Shown here: positions 17,909 to 25,573 of the stretch, one piece after another
Numbering within the stretch: position 1 is the first letter of the stretch
Layout: the number at the start of each line of letters is the position of its first letter
NCBI GenBank assembly: GCA_963790205.1
Contig: CAWBNQ010000003.1
Location: 544,001 to 608,000 of the forward strand
Source: Nitrospirota bacterium
Lineage (GTDB): Bacteria > Nitrospirota > UBA9217
Reading direction: 5' to 3'
DNA: 64,000 bases
Notes under the pieces: model-generated
What the model saw: the letters and a program-made list of their open reading frames with translations, nothing else
Told to the model about the DNA's origin: nothing
Database searches by the model: none
Position numbers and translations under genes: made by a program

Positions 17909-18661
17909 ATGAGCTATTTTCTGCAACAAACCGCAGCAAAAAAACCGGCATCGGCTGCAGTCCCCGTCTTTCACGTACGCGGTCTCACGAAGATCTACGA
18001 GATGGGCGAGGTGAAGGTGGCGGCATTGCGCGGCGTGGATTTCGATCTTCTTTCCGCCGAGCTGATCGTGCTCCTGGGGCCGTCGGGGAGCGGAAAGTCC
18101 ACGCTTTTGAACATTCTGGGCGGGCTCGACACAGCAACGGAGGGAGAGGTGATCTATTGCGGAAAGGACCTCACGCGCGCCACGGAGCAGGAGCTCACCG
18201 AGTACCGGCGGTTCCATGTGGGCTTCGTGTTCCAGTTCTACAACCTGATCCCGAGCTTGACCGCCCGGGAGAACGTTGCGGTGGTGACGGAGATCGCGAA
18301 CAACCCGATGCGCCCTGAGGACGCCCTTGCCGTCGTCGGCCTCGCGGAGCGGCTCGACCATTTCCCGGCGCAGCTTTCGGGCGGCGAACAGCAGCGGATC
18401 GCCATTGCCCGGGCGATCTCGAAGAACCCCGAGGTGCTCCTGTGCGACGAGCCCACGGGCGCCCTCGATTCCCAGACCGGGATCGTCGTTCTCGAAGCGC
18501 TGGAGCGGGTGAACCGCGAGCTCGGGACCGCCACGGTCATCATCACCCACAACGTCGACATCGCGGCCATGGCGGACCGCGTAGTCCATCTCTCCAACGG
18601 CCTCATCGCTGAAACTGCGAGGAACGCGAAGAGAAAGCCGCCGAGGGAGCTGCATTGGTAG
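17909..18661 (+). CDS. ABC transporter ATP-binding protein (LolD/MacB type)
   Basis: [28 protein letters not shown]. Confidence 0.95.
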
Positions 18662-18670
18662 GGCATTTAT

Positions 18671-18740
18671 AGATTGTCGATTGTTGATTGTAGAGTGAGG
18701 ATCAAGTGAGTTTTTCAATCAACAATCATCGATCAGCAAT
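18671..18740. repeat. Intergenic heptamer-repeat palindrome
   Basis: GATTGTC GATTGTT GATTGTA ... CAATCAA CAATCAT CGATCAG; a related heptamer run lies at 21116-21152. Confidence 0.6.
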
Positions 18741-18746
18741 GATCTT

Positions 18747-21110
18747 ATGAAGGCTTTGGACAAAAAACTCTGGCGCGACCTCTGGCAGATGAAGGGCCAG
18801 GCCCTGGCGATCATTCTCGTGATCGTGAGCGGCGTTGCCACTTTTGTCATGTTCATCAGCACCATGCACTCGCTCAACATGACGCGGGACGCCTTTTACC
18901 GCGATTTCGGGTTTGCCGAGGTCTTCGGCTCCCTCAAGCGCGCGCCGGAAAGCCTGAAGGAACGCATTCGCGAGGTCCCGGGAGTGAACCTCGTCGAGAC
19001 GCGTGTGGCAGCCGACGTGAAGCTCGATATCCCGGGGTACAACGAGCCGGTCACGGCCAGGCTCGTGTCCGTGCCGGACATCGGAAAGCCTCTCCTGAAC
19101 CGGCTGTACCTCAGAACCGGCAGGATGGTCGATCCCTCGAAGGACAACGAGGTGATCGTGAGCGAGGCGTTCGCCCAGGCCCACCAATTCAGGCCCGGCG
19201 ATTCCTTCGGCGCGGTGATCAACGGCAGGTGGCGGACCCTGGTCATCACCGGCATAGCGCTTTCGCCGGAGTTCGTTCTACAGGTAAGGCCCGGAGGCAT
19301 CAGTCCCGACTTCAAGCGTTACGGCATTCTCTGGATGAGCCGCAAGGCCCTGGGCACGGCCTACGACATGGACGGCGCGTTCAACGACGTGGTGCTCTCG
19401 CTCTCTCCGGGCGCCAAAGCTGACGACGTGATCCTGCGGCTCGACGCCATTCTCGACCGCTACGGCGGTCTCGGCGCCATCGGCAGGAAGGACCAGATGT
19501 CGAACCGGTTCCTGTCCGAGGAATTCCGCCAGCTCCAGCGTTTCGCCGAGATTTTTCCAATGATCTTCATCGGCGTCGCTGCCTTTCTTTTGAACGTGGT
19601 CATCAGCAGGACCGTGAGCACCCAGCGGGAGCAGATCGCGGCCTTGAAGGCCATCGGCTACAGCAACCTCGATGTGGGCATTCACTACGTCAAGCTCGTG
19701 CTTGTGATCGTCGTGATCGGCGTTGTTGCCGGCACGGCGGTTGGTGTCTGGATGGGCAAGGGCCTGGGGCGGATCTACCTGGAATTCTACCGGTTTCCCG
19801 GTCTTACGTTCGAACTGAACCCTGGCGTCGTGGCCGCTGCAGTGTTGATCACGGCGGGTTCTGCGCTTATGGGTACGCTCCGGTCGGTCCGGCAGGCGGC
19901 GCTTCTTCCTCCAGCCCAGGCAATGAGGCCCGAGCCGCCCTCCAGTTATAAGACATCGTTCCTCGAAAAGATCGGCCTCATCCCCATCCTGTCCCAGCCT
20001 TCGCGGATCATTCTGCGGAACCTCGGGCGGAAGCCCGTCAAGGCCCTTATGTCAGTTGTAGGCATTTCCTTTGCCTGCGCGATCATGATCACGAGCGGGT
20101 TCTTCAGCGATTCGATGGACTTCATGGTCGATGTGCAGTTCCGCCAGGCACAGCAGGAGGACATGACCGTTACCTACACCGAGGCCGCGTCGCGCAGGAC
20201 AATATACGAACTGAAGGGGCTCGCGGGCGTGGAACATGTCGAGCCGTTTCGAGCTGTACCGGCCCGGTTCCGTTTCGGCCATCGCACCTACCGGACCGTG
20301 ATCCAGGGGTTCGACCCCGGGACGAAGCTCCATCACCTGCTCGACATGCAGTTAAAACCCATCACCCTGCCGCCCGACGGCATCGTGCTGACCGACTATC
20401 TTGCGAACATGCTCGGCATCAGGGCCGGAGACATGCTGACCATCGAAGTGCTCGAGGGAAACCGTCCAATCCGCCAGGTCCCGGTGGTCGCCCTGGTACG
20501 GCAGTATATCGGGGTCATGGGATACATGGACCGGTCGGCCCTCAACCGTCTGATGCGGGAAGGGGACCTGGCGTCGGGCGCCTACCTGACCGTGGACAGC
20601 GCAGAGCAAGCGCGCCTTTACCGGACCCTGGTCGAGATGCCGCGAGTGGCCGGCGCGGTGGTCCGGCTGGACGAGATCAGGAATTTCTACCAGACCCAGG
20701 CGGAATCCATGCTCTTCTTCACATTCATCGCCACCCTTATGGGCGGGACCATCGCCTTCGGCGTGGTGTATAACAGCGCGAGGATATCCCTGTCCGAACG
20801 GAGCCGCGAGCTTGCAAGTCTCCGGGTGCTGGGCTATACGCGAGGCGAGATCTCCTATATTCTGCTGGGCGAGCTCGGCCTCCTGACGCTGGCTGCACTG
20901 CCGTTCGGATTCATCTTCGGCAGGATGCTCTGCAGTTACATCACTCATGCGATAGAGTCGGACCTCTTCCGCGTTCCCGTGGTGCTCCATGCCTCGACCT
21001 ATGCCCTGGGCGCGGCGGTCGTACTCGTATCGGCGTCCGTGTCGAGCCTGATCGTCCGGCACCGGCTGGACCACCTGGACCTCGTGGGAGTGTTGAAGAC
21101 GAAGGAATGA
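18747..21110 (+). CDS. ABC transporter permease (FtsX/MacB-like, duplicated)
   Basis: Two FtsX-type units (QREQIAALKAIGYS; ERSRELASLRVLGYT). Confidence 0.93.
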   Translation: MKALDKKLWRDLWQMKGQALAIILVIVSGVATFVMFISTMHSLNMTRDAFYRDFGFAEVFGSLKRAPESLKERIREVPGVNLVETRVAADVKLDIPGYNEPVTARLVSVPDIGKPLLNRLYLRTGRMVDPSKDNEVIVSEAFAQAHQFRPGDSFGAVINGRWRTLVITGIALSPEFVLQVRPGGISPDFKRYGILWMSRKALGTAYDMDGAFNDVVLSLSPGAKADDVILRLDAILDRYGGLGAIGRKDQMSNRFLSEEFRQLQRFAEIFPMIFIGVAAFLLNVVISRTVSTQREQIAALKAIGYSNLDVGIHYVKLVLVIVVIGVVAGTAVGVWMGKGLGRIYLEFYRFPGLTFELNPGVVAAAVLITAGSALMGTLRSVRQAALLPPAQAMRPEPPSSYKTSFLEKIGLIPILSQPSRIILRNLGRKPVKALMSVVGISFACAIMITSGFFSDSMDFMVDVQFRQAQQEDMTVTYTEAASRRTIYELKGLAGVEHVEPFRAVPARFRFGHRTYRTVIQGFDPGTKLHHLLDMQLKPITLPPDGIVLTDYLANMLGIRAGDMLTIEVLEGNRPIRQVPVVALVRQYIGVMGYMDRSALNRLMREGDLASGAYLTVDSAEQARLYRTLVEMPRVAGAVVRLDEIRNFYQTQAESMLFFTFIATLMGGTIAFGVVYNSARISLSERSRELASLRVLGYTRGEISYILLGELGLLTLAALPFGFIFGRMLCSYITHAIESDLFRVPVVLHASTYALGAAVVLVSASVSSLIVRHRLDHLDLVGVLKTKE

Positions 21111-21163
21111 TTGTATTGCGAATTTCGGATTGCGGATAGCTGATTGCGGAATGAGGTGATTCG

Positions 21164-22363
21164 ATGAAAGCTCAAACTCGCAGAAGCATATTTGTCGTCA
21201 CCGTCGGAGTTCTCGTCGCGCTTGCACTCGTCTACGGGTTCATGCCAAAGCCCGTATCCGTGGATGCGATAGCGGCCCGGCGCGGGCCTTTCCGGGTCAC
21301 GGTGGAAGAAGAGGGAAGGACGCGGGTGAAGGACCGCTTCGTTGTCTCGTCGCCTGTTCCGGGGTATCTTCAGCGGATCGATCTCGAGGTGGGAGATGTT
21401 GTCAGCAAGGGTCGGCGGATTGCCGTGCTCGAACCGCTCCGCTCCACGGTCCTCGATCCCCGGAGTCGCGCAGAGGCGGAAGCTTCAGCAGCGTCGGCAA
21501 AGGCGGTGCTCGACGCGGCGAAAGAGAAAGCGCGCGCAGCCATGGCCGATGCTGAATATGCCCGCGAGCGAAACATCCGCATGAAGAAGCTGGCCGGGGG
21601 CGGCTTCATCTCGAGGGATGATCTCGAACAATCGGATTCGGAGGCCAAGAAGGCCGAGGCAACGCGGCTTTCCGCGGAAGCGGCGGTGACAGCGGCGGCG
21701 GCCGATCTTGAGCGGGCGCAAAGCGTGCTCCGCTACTCGGCGGCCGAGCATGAGCCGGGCGGCGGAAAGACCGTCATCGTGCATGCGCCGGTGAGCGGCA
21801 GGGTCTTGAAACTGCACCGCGAGAGCGAAGGCGTGGTGAATTCGGGAGACCCGCTCGTGGACATCGGCGATCCCCGCCTGCTGGAGGTCAAGGCCGAGGT
21901 GCTTTCAGCCGACGCGGTAAAGATCAGAAAAGGCACGCCGGTGGTCTTCGAGCGCTGGGGAGGGGACAAGCCGTTGTCAGGCAGGGTGGGGGTCGTGGAG
22001 CCCGCCGGGTTCACGAAGATATCGAGCCTGGGCGTGGAAGAACAGCGCGTCCTCGTGATCGTGGACTTTACCTCGCCTGCCGACGTCTGGGAAGGGCTCG
22101 GCGACGCATACCGGCTCGACACGAGCTTCATCATCTGGGAGGGGAAAGACGTGCTCCAGGCGCCGGCGAGCGCGCTTTTCCGAAAGGGTGAAGACTGGGC
22201 CCTCTTTACGATCGAGAACAAGCGTGCGCGCCTCCGGACGGTGGAGGTTGGCCATCGGAACGGCTTGAGCGCCGAGATCCTCTCCGGCCTCAAGGAGGGC
22301 GAGATGGTCGTCGCCCATCCCGATGATGAGGTCAAGGACGGGGCGCGGGTGAAGGTGCGGTGA
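21164..22363 (+). CDS. Efflux periplasmic adaptor (HlyD/MacA-like membrane fusion protein)
   Basis: N-terminal TM, lipoyl-hairpin segments, SSLGVEEQRV motif. Confidence 0.92.
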   Translation: MKAQTRRSIFVVTVGVLVALALVYGFMPKPVSVDAIAARRGPFRVTVEEEGRTRVKDRFVVSSPVPGYLQRIDLEVGDVVSKGRRIAVLEPLRSTVLDPRSRAEAEASAASAKAVLDAAKEKARAAMADAEYARERNIRMKKLAGGGFISRDDLEQSDSEAKKAEATRLSAEAAVTAAAADLERAQSVLRYSAAEHEPGGGKTVIVHAPVSGRVLKLHRESEGVVNSGDPLVDIGDPRLLEVKAEVLSADAVKIRKGTPVVFERWGGDKPLSGRVGVVEPAGFTKISSLGVEEQRVLVIVDFTSPADVWEGLGDAYRLDTSFIIWEGKDVLQAPASALFRKGEDWALFTIENKRARLRTVEVGHRNGLSAEILSGLKEGEMVVAHPDDEVKDGARVKVR

Positions 22364-22485
22364 ATATATCAGCAATGAAATATCGGATTTTTTTCTATCC
22401 ACAGACCTTATGATTAAAAAGGCAAGTCTGACTTAAGGTATATTAGGTCTATCCCGGACCAAAATACACCAAAAGGAGACTTGCC

Positions 22486-23556
22486 ATGAATAACGTTAGC
22501 AGACTCGATTTCACTGGTCAACAAATTTATGTCGGTATGGACATTCATAAGAAAAGTTGGAGCATCAGTATTTTTACCGATCAGTTCGAGCATAAGACCT
22601 TTTCACAACCTCCGGAGGTCGGGGTGCTGGTAAACTATCTCAAACGCAATTTTCCGGGTGCAGCCTATAAGTCGGTCTATGAGGCCGGTTACTCCGGTTT
22701 CTGGATACATGACCGGCTTCAGGAGCGAGGCATACAATGTCTCGTGGTCAATCCGGCGGATGTGCCCACAAAAGACAAAGAGCGCGCAGGCAAGACCGAC
22801 CGGGTGGACTGCCGCAAGCTAGCCCGGAGCCTCAGAAACGGCGACATCGAAGGGATCTATGTCCCTACGCGACCAAAAGTCGAGGACCGCAGCCTCCTTC
22901 GTACTCGAAATAGCATGGTAAGGAAACAAACTCGCTGCAAGAACCAGATCAAGTCGATCCTGAGCTTTTACGGTATCGACATACCGGACGATTTCATCAA
23001 CGGTTACTGGTCCAAACGCTTCATCAATTGGATCGAGTCCGTACAAATGGAGCGGGCCAGCGGCAACCTATCACTCAAGATACACTTAGACGAGCTTAAG
23101 CATCTTCGGCATATCATTGCCGAGATGAACCGGGCGATCCGCGCCCTGGCCAATTCGGACGACTATCGGAACAATGTCCGGATACTTAAGACCGTGCCGG
23201 GAATCAGTACCTTGACCGCGATGATGCTCTTGACGGAGCTGTATGACATCAATCGTTTCAAGACGCTCGACAAACTCTGCAGCTACGTTGGCCTTATCCC
23301 CGATACCGATTCCAGCGGGGAAAAGGACCTTAAAACCGGCATGACCGGCAGGCGGAACGCCCAGCTTCGCTTCGTCTTGATCGAAAGCGCTTGGACGGCG
23401 GTGCGAAAAGACCCTGCCCTAATGATGGCGTTCAATGAGCTGTGCAAACACATGACAAAGACCAAAGCTATCGTTCGGATCGCCCGGAAGCTGTTAAACC
23501 GCGTCCGGTACGTTTTAAAGAACCAACAAGAATACACTACGGCGGTTGTTCAATAA
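22486..23556 (+). CDS. IS110-family transposase/recombinase
   Basis: DEDD RuvC-like residues (GMDIH, YEAG, KTDRVD) and C-terminal GLIPDTDSSG serine motif. Confidence 0.95.
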   Translation: MNNVSRLDFTGQQIYVGMDIHKKSWSISIFTDQFEHKTFSQPPEVGVLVNYLKRNFPGAAYKSVYEAGYSGFWIHDRLQERGIQCLVVNPADVPTKDKERAGKTDRVDCRKLARSLRNGDIEGIYVPTRPKVEDRSLLRTRNSMVRKQTRCKNQIKSILSFYGIDIPDDFINGYWSKRFINWIESVQMERASGNLSLKIHLDELKHLRHIIAEMNRAIRALANSDDYRNNVRILKTVPGISTLTAMMLLTELYDINRFKTLDKLCSYVGLIPDTDSSGEKDLKTGMTGRRNAQLRFVLIESAWTAVRKDPALMMAFNELCKHMTKTKAIVRIARKLLNRVRYVLKNQQEYTTAVVQ

Positions 23557-23579
23557 AAAACCGATATTTATAGCCGATC

Positions 23580-23760
23580 TTAAACCCGTGTTTCACCGTG
23601 GGTATCGTCTTGCGTAATCTACAGCGGATCGAAAGATGCCGTCTGTGCTTCCACAGACTACGAACCCACGCCTTCATAATTAATCAAGGCAATGCAGCGT
23701 TTTCTTCATCAACGAAGACTGTCTGCTCATAGAAGATTGGGTTTGAAGATTGCGTTCGCT
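23580..23760 (+). ncRNA. Predicted bridge/seek RNA of the IS110 element
   Basis: Target guides TGCGTAATCT (23611-23620) and TCCACAGA (23650-23657) flank a hairpin; donor guide CATAGAAGA (23728-23736). RNA ends are approximate. Confidence 0.75.
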
Positions 23761-23825
23761 ATAAATCGCTCCTTAATAAAAGAGATGCGTTTATGCCAAA
23801 AGAAAGACTTGCTTTTTAACATAGA

Positions 23826-23904
23826 AGATTACTCAGATTGCACAGATTAATGAGGCCGGAATTTTTGGGTTTTAAATCTGCGTCCGTCTGCGAAATCTGC
23901 GGAT
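23826..23904. repeat. REP-like palindrome (CAGATT/AATCTG units), right part of the IS110 target
   Basis: AGATTACTCAGATTGCACAGATT...AATCTGCGTCCGTCTGCGAAATCTGCGGAT; pairs with ATCCACAGA at 22397-22405. Confidence 0.75.
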
Positions 23905-23935
23905 AGATCGGCTTTTCGCGTTTTTGCCTCATCCT

Positions 23936-24397
23936 ATGCCCAAGACCAGCGCAGGTATTTTATTATATAAAGGAAAGGACGACGAGCTTCGGGTCTTCCT
24001 CGTCCATCCCGGAGGGCCGTTCTTCGCGAAAAAGGACGAGGGGGCCTGGTCCGTGCCGAAAGGAGAGCTCGACGAGGGCGAGGATGCGCTCGCCGCGGCC
24101 CGGAGGGAATTCGAGGAAGAGACCGGATGCGAGCTGGAGGGAATGTTCGTCCCGCTCTCGCCAATCACACAGAAGGGCGGCAAGATCGTCCTTGCCTGGG
24201 CAGTTGAGGGTGACTGCGACGCTGACGCGATCAGGAGCAACACCTTCGCGCTCGAATGGCCGCTAAAGTCGGGCAGGATGCAGGAGTTCCCGGAAGTGGA
24301 CCGGGCGGGATGGTTCACGGTCGAAGAAGCGAAAAAAAAGATCAATCCCGCACAGGCAGCGCTGGTGGATGAGCTGCTGAGTACGCTGACAAACTGA
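23936..24397 (+). CDS. NUDIX hydrolase
   Basis: Nudix box PKGELDEGEDALAAARREFEEETG; VHPGGPF. Confidence 0.92.
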   Translation: MPKTSAGILLYKGKDDELRVFLVHPGGPFFAKKDEGAWSVPKGELDEGEDALAAARREFEEETGCELEGMFVPLSPITQKGGKIVLAWAVEGDCDADAIRSNTFALEWPLKSGRMQEFPEVDRAGWFTVEEAKKKINPAQAALVDELLSTLTN

Positions 24398-24427
24398 TCA
24401 AGATTCAAAGCGATCGAGGTAACGCTC

Positions 24428-24682
24428 ATGTGTAGAAACATCAAGACCCTTTTCAACTTCGAACCGCCTGTGACGGACGAAGAGATTCGCGGGGCCTCAC
24501 TGCAATTCGTGAGAAAAGTAAGCGGCTTCAACAAGCCCTCGAAGGCCAACGAAGCCGCATTTCTTGCGGCTGTTGACGAGGTGGCGGCAATTACCAGAAG
24601 TCTTCTGAGCTCGCTTGAGACGAACGCACCGCCGAGGAACCGTGCAGAAGAGGCTGCCAAAGCACGAGCACGCGCTGTTTAA
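24428..24682 (+). CDS. DUF2277 family protein
   Basis: MCRNIKTLFNFEPP..EEI..ASLQFVRKVSGF signature. Confidence 0.88.
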   Translation: MCRNIKTLFNFEPPVTDEEIRGASLQFVRKVSGFNKPSKANEAAFLAAVDEVAAITRSLLSSLETNAPPRNRAEEAAKARARAV

Positions 24683-24761
24683 AGGTTTTCTACGTGAACA
24701 GCTTTCCATCGATCCCACATTCGGGCGGGGAGCGTCCAGCAGCGTTTCTTCCCCGACAGAC

Positions 24762-24904
24762 TAGCGTAGTGCGTCATAAATCTCTTTACATAGGTGGTCA
24801 TTCTGAGCGCGGTGAAGAATCACGCATTTTCAAATCGTTGCAAGACCCTTCACTTCGTTCAGGGTGACAACTTAAGCTAAAGAAGCGTTGGAAACGTTAC
24901 ACTA
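24762..24904. repeat. MITE/REP-like composite palindrome
   Basis: Internal GTCATTCTGAGC..GAAGAATC / GACCCTTCACTTCGTTCAGGGTGAC hairpin; imperfect outer IRs TAGCGTAGTG / CGTTACACTA. Confidence 0.6.
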
Positions 24905-25573
24905 ACAATAGTTCAACCCCGCCACGTACGAGCCGTCTTCCCGCTGCCGGACCCAGCGAACTGTCGCGGGACGGCACGGGCGCACGGGCCCCGAATCAAC
25001 GCAAACCCGCTGTTCTCTGATCAGCGGAGACTTCAACTCGAGGCAGAGGCCCGACTCGCTCACATTGAGCGCGGCCCCCTCCAGAAGCTCCTCGTTGTGA
25101 CCTACCATACGGGCCATTGCGCGGGAAAGGGGACGGCGCACTTCCTTTCTCAGGGCGGGCAGCGGGCTCGAAAGGTCGGTCCGTTCTCTACACGTATTCA
25201 GCCACTGTCTTATCTCAGAGAAGCGGAGCGGTTTCTGGAAAAAAATATATCCCATACCCTCTATTTCCTTCCGCAGCGCGTCGTCGCCATGGCCTGATAT
25301 CAAGGCCTTGTTCTTGAGCGGCAGCGCGCAGCCCATCTTTACCTGTTCCCGCAGCAGTTGAAGCCCGTTCATGCCCGGCATCTTGTAATCCGTGATCAGA
25401 ACGTCCACACAGGGGGAAAGGGCGGGGCAGGAATGCGAGCAATGGTCATAGGTCGGGCATACGACGGGTTCCCCGTACGCGAGCACCTCGCAATCTTTGC
25501 CGGAGAAGAACTCCCTGAAGAGTGAAAGGATCGGCTCTTCATCATCGAAAACGAGCATGCGCAGCTTTCTCAT
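24902..25573 (-). CDS. Response-regulator receiver domain + PilZ domain protein
   Basis: VFDDE, ITDYKMPGMNG, FQKP; then RKEVR and NVSESG (PilZ RxxxR, D/NxSxxG). Confidence 0.85.
   Translation of the reverse strand: MRKLRMLVFDDEEPILSLFREFFSGKDCEVLAYGEPVVCPTYDHCSHSCPALSPCVDVLITDYKMPGMNGLQLLREQVKMGCALPLKNKALISGHGDDALRKEIEGMGYIFFQKPLRFSEIRQWLNTCRERTDLSSPLPALRKEVRRPLSRAMARMVGHNEELLEGAALNVSESGLCLELKSPLIREQRVCVDSGPVRPCRPATVRWVRQREDGSYVAGLNYC

Follow-up and report, generated by a model that had tools for sequence, protein, structure and literature searches.

An IS1111-type element and its recombinase

The window analysed here is a stretch of 64,000 nucleotides from contig CAWBNQ010000003.1 of a Nitrospirota bacterium (assembly GCA_963790205.1). 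Its plus strand holds an insertion sequence of 1423 bp (22403..23825), with a gene for an IS110-family DEDD recombinase of 356 amino acids (22486..23556) and, downstream of the gene, a predicted bridge/seek RNA (23566..23766). The insertion site of this copy is intergenic. ABC-type transporter genes and a HlyD-family gene lie upstream (17909-22363), and a NUDIX gene and a DUF2277 gene lie downstream (23924-24682).

The extent of the element was set from the sequence that the genomic copies have in common (22406-23825), which diverge beyond the guide-matched flanks. The ends follow a convention of a 7-nt left extension, AG included, and a 3-nt right extension (22403-22409 and 23823-23825), which leaves zero target duplication and corresponds to the 7+3 rule described for IS1111-type ends (PMC11187229). 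Next to the extensions, direct reading of the sequence reveals subterminal inverted repeats at 22410..22428 and 23806..23822, which pair with two 1-nt bulges. Non-coding DNA beside the gene amounts to 269 nt on the right versus 83 nt on the left. The first-pass annotation had carried the element on to 23904, which is too far: its true end is 23825, and 23826-23907 is target repeat.

The recombinase was identified by domain profiles and by alignment to the IS621 and ISCro4 chains. Both PF01548 and PF02371 score over their cut-offs, NF033542 gives 210 bits (cut-off 140), and D19, E66, D105, D108 and S277 line up with the IS621 catalytic motifs, so that the DEDD RuvC-like domain and the PF02371 domain with its catalytic serine, as in the IS110 family, are both present. 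The description of the element as intact holds, since the reading frame and the catalytic residues are whole. Other traits of the family are likewise found: a specific target, one orientation, a short core and no true duplication. Judged by its anatomy, the element is an IS1111-type member of the IS110 family.

A predicted two-loop RNA with four guides

The predicted RNA (fold z = -3.5, covarying consensus stems) consists of an outer stem around a target-binding loop and a donor-binding loop, both built on one common stem motif. In the target loop, guide 1 (23611..23620) is complementary to the right target flank, core included, as judged by the match and by covariation. Guide 2 (23650..23658) comprises the left target flank (23650-23654), an invariant AG (23655-23656) and a handshake AC (23657-23658) that matches the left end of the element. 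In the donor loop, guide 3 (23686..23692), assigned by covariation, is a short left-end donor guide, AAGGC, and guide 4 (23728..23737) comprises the right donor end (23728-23733), an invariant AG (23734-23735) and a handshake AT (23736-23737) that matches the target. The left-end donor arm ACCTT (22405..22409), also assigned by covariation, is shared, with bases 1-2 pairing with the target-loop handshake and positions 2-5 with the short donor guide. Guide 1 stands ahead of guide 2, that is, the top-strand match comes before the bottom-strand match, which is the order given for the IS1111 group in PMC11187229.

Every string quoted in the first-pass annotation was found where it had been placed (23611-23620, 23650-23657, 22398-22405, 23728-23736 and 23681-23689, together with the hairpin 23621-23646, the right end 23820-23828 and the right flank 23826-23835), and the match lengths of 9/10, 8/8 and 9/9 are correct. 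The partner donor guide, which had been read at 23681-23689, stood only in part. AAGG(C) at 23686-23690 is supported and the rest of that register is without covariation: only offset 2 of the guide 3 alignment beat permutation, and offsets 0, 1 and 3 gave no excess (19,954, 18,473 and 2,221 of 20,000 permutations). The two core-facing bases of guide 3, AA, are unpaired with the core, and guide 3 complements the core in just 2 of 63 RNAs. One IS621-type trait, core pairing by all four guides, is thus absent, and another, handshake dinucleotides that pair with the other DNA after exchange, is present.

Whether the guides lie in loops depends on the fold considered. In the consensus of 63 RNAs, which has three conserved stems, all four are unpaired; 98% of 1005 cells in the stems pair, both sides have changed in 10 of the 16 pairs, and no slid control exceeds 50%. 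In the single-sequence fold, in contrast, guide 2 and the partner donor guide end up paired. In the ensemble of the naked window RNA the mean unpaired probability is 0.20 for guide 2 and 0.03 for guide 3, and opening all guides at once is predicted to cost 9.5 kcal/mol over the minimum. With guides 2 and 3 predicted to be hidden in the RNA on its own, selection of the open form would fall to the protein. An Rfam scan of window 21000-25500 at E up to 1 returned no match, and no stand-alone RNA copy without the gene was detected in the genome at E 1e-3.

Guides covary with their DNA partners

Homologue scans yielded 63, 79 and 16 loci. Among homologues with at least 50% identity, 89 had a detectable RNA region, 65 once near-duplicates were taken out, and 63 entered the RNA alignment (L036 and L171 were left out). 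Their ends were called independently of the guides; a few right ends in this set are mis-called, the effect of which is dilution only.

Both target guides agreed with their own flanks far more often than after permutation. Guide 2 matched the left flank at 4.10 of 5 positions versus 1.63 permuted (n=51) and guide 1 the right flank at 6.02 of 7 versus 3.36 (n=55), neither value being reached in 20,000 permutations. Covariation of guide 2 was confined to positions -1 to -5, and pairing past 5 nt was rejected, with nothing at positions -6 to -8. The donor loop behaved likewise: guide 4 matched the right end at 2.80 of 3 positions versus 2.29 permuted (n=60; 0/20,000), and guide 3 matched the left end by a small margin, 4.14 of 6 versus 3.80 (n=56; 0/20,000). 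Handshakes covaried too, in the target loop with the left end (1.98 of 2 versus 1.66 permuted; n=56; 0/20,000) and in the donor loop with the target (0.80 of 2 versus 0.53; n=56; 0/20,000). A target-loop handshake that reads the target rather than the donor gave no signal (6,596 of 20,000).

These permutation tests count related elements as independent. As kin are not independent, 24 disjoint nearest (sister) pairs were taken, which reduce the kinship effect and do not remove it. At guide positions that differ within a pair, guide 2 gave 68 own-target matches versus 9 swapped and guide 1 gave 108 versus 6, or 176 versus 15 summed. The nearest full-length relative (L094, 87%) differs in guide 1, and its target differs to match. 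By permutation and by sister pairs alike, guides vary with their own targets across homologues, and in sequence terms the element is naturally reprogrammed.

The donor-loop results bear on a model taken from seekRNAs, in which the target loop, processed to an RNA of about 80 nt, is sufficient and the ends are recognised mainly by the protein through the inverted repeats; the donor loop would then be accessory, or used for excision only. An 82-nt seekRNA is reported as enough for movement of ISEc11 (PMC11187229), long inverted repeats exist in the window element, and guide 3, a short guide unpaired with the core, is sequestered in the predicted fold. Yet covariation with the partner DNA is seen for both donor guides (3 and 4) and for the handshake of the donor loop, whose stem is conserved as strongly as that of the target loop; together these indicate that this loop is under selection for DNA pairing. 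We regard a target loop acting alone as unlikely.

Copies occupy a host repeat

The genome contains six full copies of the element with 0 differences over 1420 nt and two additional halves (G000:C11:1-727 and G000:C3:1073733-1074430) that jointly cover it and may stand for a seventh copy. From its sequence, the element is recently multiplied and recently mobile. The right half, on C3, adjoins a terminal 12.6 kb of unrelated DNA, one section of which is 79% similar to C1:812157-814824; this junction suggests a rearrangement or a mis-assembly.

In the window, the left part of the target repeat arm lies at 22394..22402, of which TCCAC (22398-22402) is the part read by guide 2. The target core AG (23826-23827) and the remainder of the two-armed CAGAT repeat occupy 23826..23907, as defined by the copies and a repeat profile. 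Across the genome, the seven left junctions are preceded by TCCAC (three), TCCGC (three) or CACAC (one), right flanks start with AGATTAC in 7/7, and a single repeat-arm orientation is found in 7/7 junction pairs. All other copies therefore lie within the same CAGAT repeat family, and together with the guide-target covariation this bears out the proposal of the first-pass annotation that the element is programmed against a CAGATT-type repeat family. Its suggestion that the single guide mismatch reflects the repeat consensus was also borne out, with the consensus G in 5/7 occupied right flanks and 12/16 strict-pattern arms; as five of the seven right flanks match guide 1 in full, the mismatch in the window is a property of that repeat copy. 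With the copies removed, 12 genomic sites differ by at most one base from the 15-nt target that the guides define, versus 0.3 expected.

A profile of the repeat recovered 16 loci, mostly of 80-100 nt. Of 41 genomes searched, 16 contain its motif (13 of 24 in the same family), with 0 control hits. One genome (G005) has 203 matches to the motif and no close transposase (best E 6e-10). Since the motif is found in other genomes, including one that lacks a close transposase, the repeat is a host family exploited by the element. A tie between the CAGAT repeat and GxxExxY genes was unsupported: 4/5 motif-bearing genes have no upstream CAGAT unit, and such genes never have more than one unit on either side.

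Target choice might also need the hairpin structure of the repeat, beyond guide pairing. As a single strand, the reconstructed window site forms a hairpin of -13.5 kcal/mol, 13 of the 16 repeat loci are two-armed, and a preprint on ISPpu10 describes recognition of sequence plus structure (10.64898/2026.03.19.712850). Against this, a lone degenerate arm holds one copy (G000:C1:805789), occupancy is 7/13 for arms with the guide-matching A and 0/7 for those with T, and many homologues lie at sites without an evident repeat. A structural requirement of this kind strikes us as improbable.

Last, the matches could be chance or relics of captured flanks with no role as guides, as they are short and in 3000 base shuffles of 23557-23790 arose singly 25, 9 and 4 times (0.1-0.8%) and jointly 0 times, but covariation refutes this reading almost entirely: four guides at fixed places in a conserved fold track their own DNA partners in 51-60 elements, and sister elements with altered guides have altered targets.

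Asymmetric cores at the two junctions

The AGA/TCT core of the first-pass annotation was not upheld. The base after AG on the target side varies (A 30, G 17, T 8, C 4 in 59 homologues with a called right end), and the common core is AG. In the window, the core at the left junction is AG at 22403..22404 (CT on the minus strand), which covariation and junction counts indicate to be donor-derived. We counted junctions in 72 distinct elements with both ends, of 74. The left core was AG in 72/72; the right core was AG in 60, GG in 11 and AA in one. Nine of the 11 GG-junction elements have GG spelled out in guide 1, and empty copies of the commonest GG-junction target have GG in 16/20. As the left AG is constant and the right core follows the target, the left AG appears to be supplied by the element; this places the ends at 22403 and 23825, in line with the 7+3 rule.

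Such asymmetry agrees with a product set by a single exchanged strand. A product of this kind was seen in vitro for CazIS110-1 (10.1101/2025.10.25.684509) and has been suggested for IS621. Both top-strand integration by CazIS110-1 and half-match recombination (10.64898/2026.08.31.748434) are described with one dominant strand, predicting the left-AG/right-GG junctions found here; that evidence is in vitro and from other elements, whereas ours consists of natural junctions only.

Proposed mechanism

On the anatomy, copy number, target specificity, covariation of guides and handshakes with DNA and junction asymmetry described above, we consider it highly probable that the window holds an intact, recently mobile IS1111-type element that uses IS621-like bridge-RNA chemistry on the strand opposite its gene. 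With the circle, promoter activity, RNA binding and order of cleavage taken from published systems, the reaction may run as follows. The element ends would join to form a circle, creating a -35/17 nt/-10 promoter from which the recombinase gene and the RNA beyond it would both be transcribed. Guides 1 and 2 of the target loop would open one arm of the host CAGAT repeat, and the donor loop would hold the joined ends through guide 4, with help from the short guide 3 and probably from contacts between the protein and the inverted repeats. Cuts would be made beside the core in the minus strands, the CT-carrying ones, which would then be swapped. Handshake bases would form two pairs before exchange and four after, favouring insertion; more handshake pairs after exchange are said to have this effect in PMC13626964. 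The swapped strand would set the final sequence, with the donor core on the left and the target core on the right.

The predicted circle-junction promoter has a -10 box TATGAT (22409..22414), proposed from sequence, and a -35 box TTGCTT (23809..23814) inside the right inverted repeat, 17 nt apart once the ends are joined. At the level of sequence, 72 of 75 elements have -35 and -10 boxes 17-18 nt apart when their ends are joined. A promoter and terminator scan of the linear element gave one weak internal match versus 2.1 expected and 0 terminators. No end-to-end circle joint appeared in four runs (two DNA and two RNA libraries), all available as contigs, which drop rare forms; in one RNA library, contigs of relative elements span the RNA region, which is no proof of transcription.

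More tentatively, and as a possibility that we rate below even, the bridge reaction of this clade may be asymmetric: three guides pair with the core and the fourth is a stub, a single strand sets the product, extra target loops in a Bacteroidota sister clade give one recombinase two target programmes, and the reversed guide order of IS1111 is IS621 geometry on the other strand. If this is true, the target core need not equal the donor core, and the natural junctions would be population-scale in vivo evidence for one-strand insertion.

Relation to known systems

The window element has features in common with ISEc11, ISKpn4 and ISPa11, as described by Siddiquee et al. 2024 (PMC11187229): the downstream non-coding region, subterminal inverted repeats, 7+3-nt extensions, junction promoter, guide-match order, G-L-x-P----SG motif and natural reprogramming. 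A repeat as target is like ISPa11 in the same source. Unlike these seekRNA elements, it has a second loop with donor guides that clearly covary. With IS621 and ISCro4, as presented by Durrant et al. 2024 (PMC11208160) and Hiraizumi et al. (PMC11208158, PMC13626964), it shares two pseudo-symmetric internal loops, a 2-nt core reading CT on one strand, a core at the 3′ end of the guides, a REP-like target and handshake dinucleotides that pair after strand exchange, handshake guides having been described for IS621 (PMC11208158). It differs from them in that the RNA lies in the right end, CT is read on the strand complementary to the coding strand of the gene, the equivalent of the LDG is about 5 nt and off the core, and the inverted repeats are long. 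Plus-strand AG is minus-strand CT, the IS621 core; so read, guide 1 would by analogy be the LTG and guide 2 the RTG.

The element is a clear fresh example of a mechanism described in 2024 and not a new system. A bridge RNA is predicted for 93% of IS1111-type elements (PMC11208160), and REP targeting and natural reprogramming are already published (PMC11187229). Its value is as a clean, recently active, naturally reprogrammed case on a branch far from tested bridge recombinases, in which all four guides and the two handshakes can be read, along with dozens of naturally occurring guide-target pairs. It bears on whether IS1111-type elements use the donor loop and on whether the product of insertion is set by one strand or by both; most useful to specialists are the junction asymmetry and the stub donor guide. 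Among the papers listed by literature searches aimed at these points, titles and the opening lines of abstracts mention neither core mismatch and handshakes in IS1111 nor extra target loops.

The protein itself stands apart. Its likeness to the IS621 and ISCro4 chains (PDB 8wt6, 9t56) is weak, with E about 1e-6, its identity to ISEc11, IS4321, IS5075 and IS5708 is just 21-25%, outside their clade, and at 356 aa it is longer than the 330-350 stated for the IS1111 group. In both trees (28 and 19 rows), which do not include IS621 and ISEc21, it lies on a branch apart from the tight ISEc11/IS4321 clade; one clade with ISEc11/IS4321 was rejected at the borderline (p-AU 0.0485, 19-row quick tree). 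The element is IS1111-type in anatomy yet, by the trees and this borderline result, no member of the ISEc11/IS4321 core clade. The nearest named branch in both trees is that of ISEc45 (support 92/90 and 90, unstarred), with identity to ISEc45 itself of only 26%. By supplement column order in PMC11187229 this branch also holds ISCARN28 and ISAzs32, for both of which bridge RNAs are drawn in PMC11208160. None of six clade protein motifs occurs in the ISfinder set of the PMC11187229 supplement, and among the matches listed in the table of Durrant et al. (PMC11208160) the motif-bearing Bacteroidetes rows have no ISfinder name; motif searches of these two supplements thus found no ISfinder-named member of the clade.

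Further observations

Two further IS110-family transposases, 24% and 27% identical to that of the window, are present in the genome in two copies each (G000:C1:496675, C1:230706, C2:81259 and C5:26460). The guide-2 region (23650-23664) is within two mismatches of the element's own 15-nt target, which makes self-insertion there conceivable; none was seen.

In 4 of 19 Bacteroidota-type homologues (35-39% identity), the usual two-loop RNA has upstream of it one more stem-loop, which is complete, resembles a target loop and differs in its guide bases (L063:2545-2850, L064:1490-1790, L065:1474-1790 and L076:1518-1717, the last truncated by a contig end). It could be a second target programme. In the same sister clade, right flanks of L056-L085 mostly have GTT-purine motifs about 6 nt beyond the core, which we take to resemble integron attC ends. 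In L105-L119, L137, L141-L145 and L160, and in L032-L040 and L049, the left end reaches about 250-300 nt or the right end about 465 nt, and the RNA is the same. One homologue (L046) is flanked by a direct duplication of about 69 bp, either an assembly artefact or an unusual insertion.
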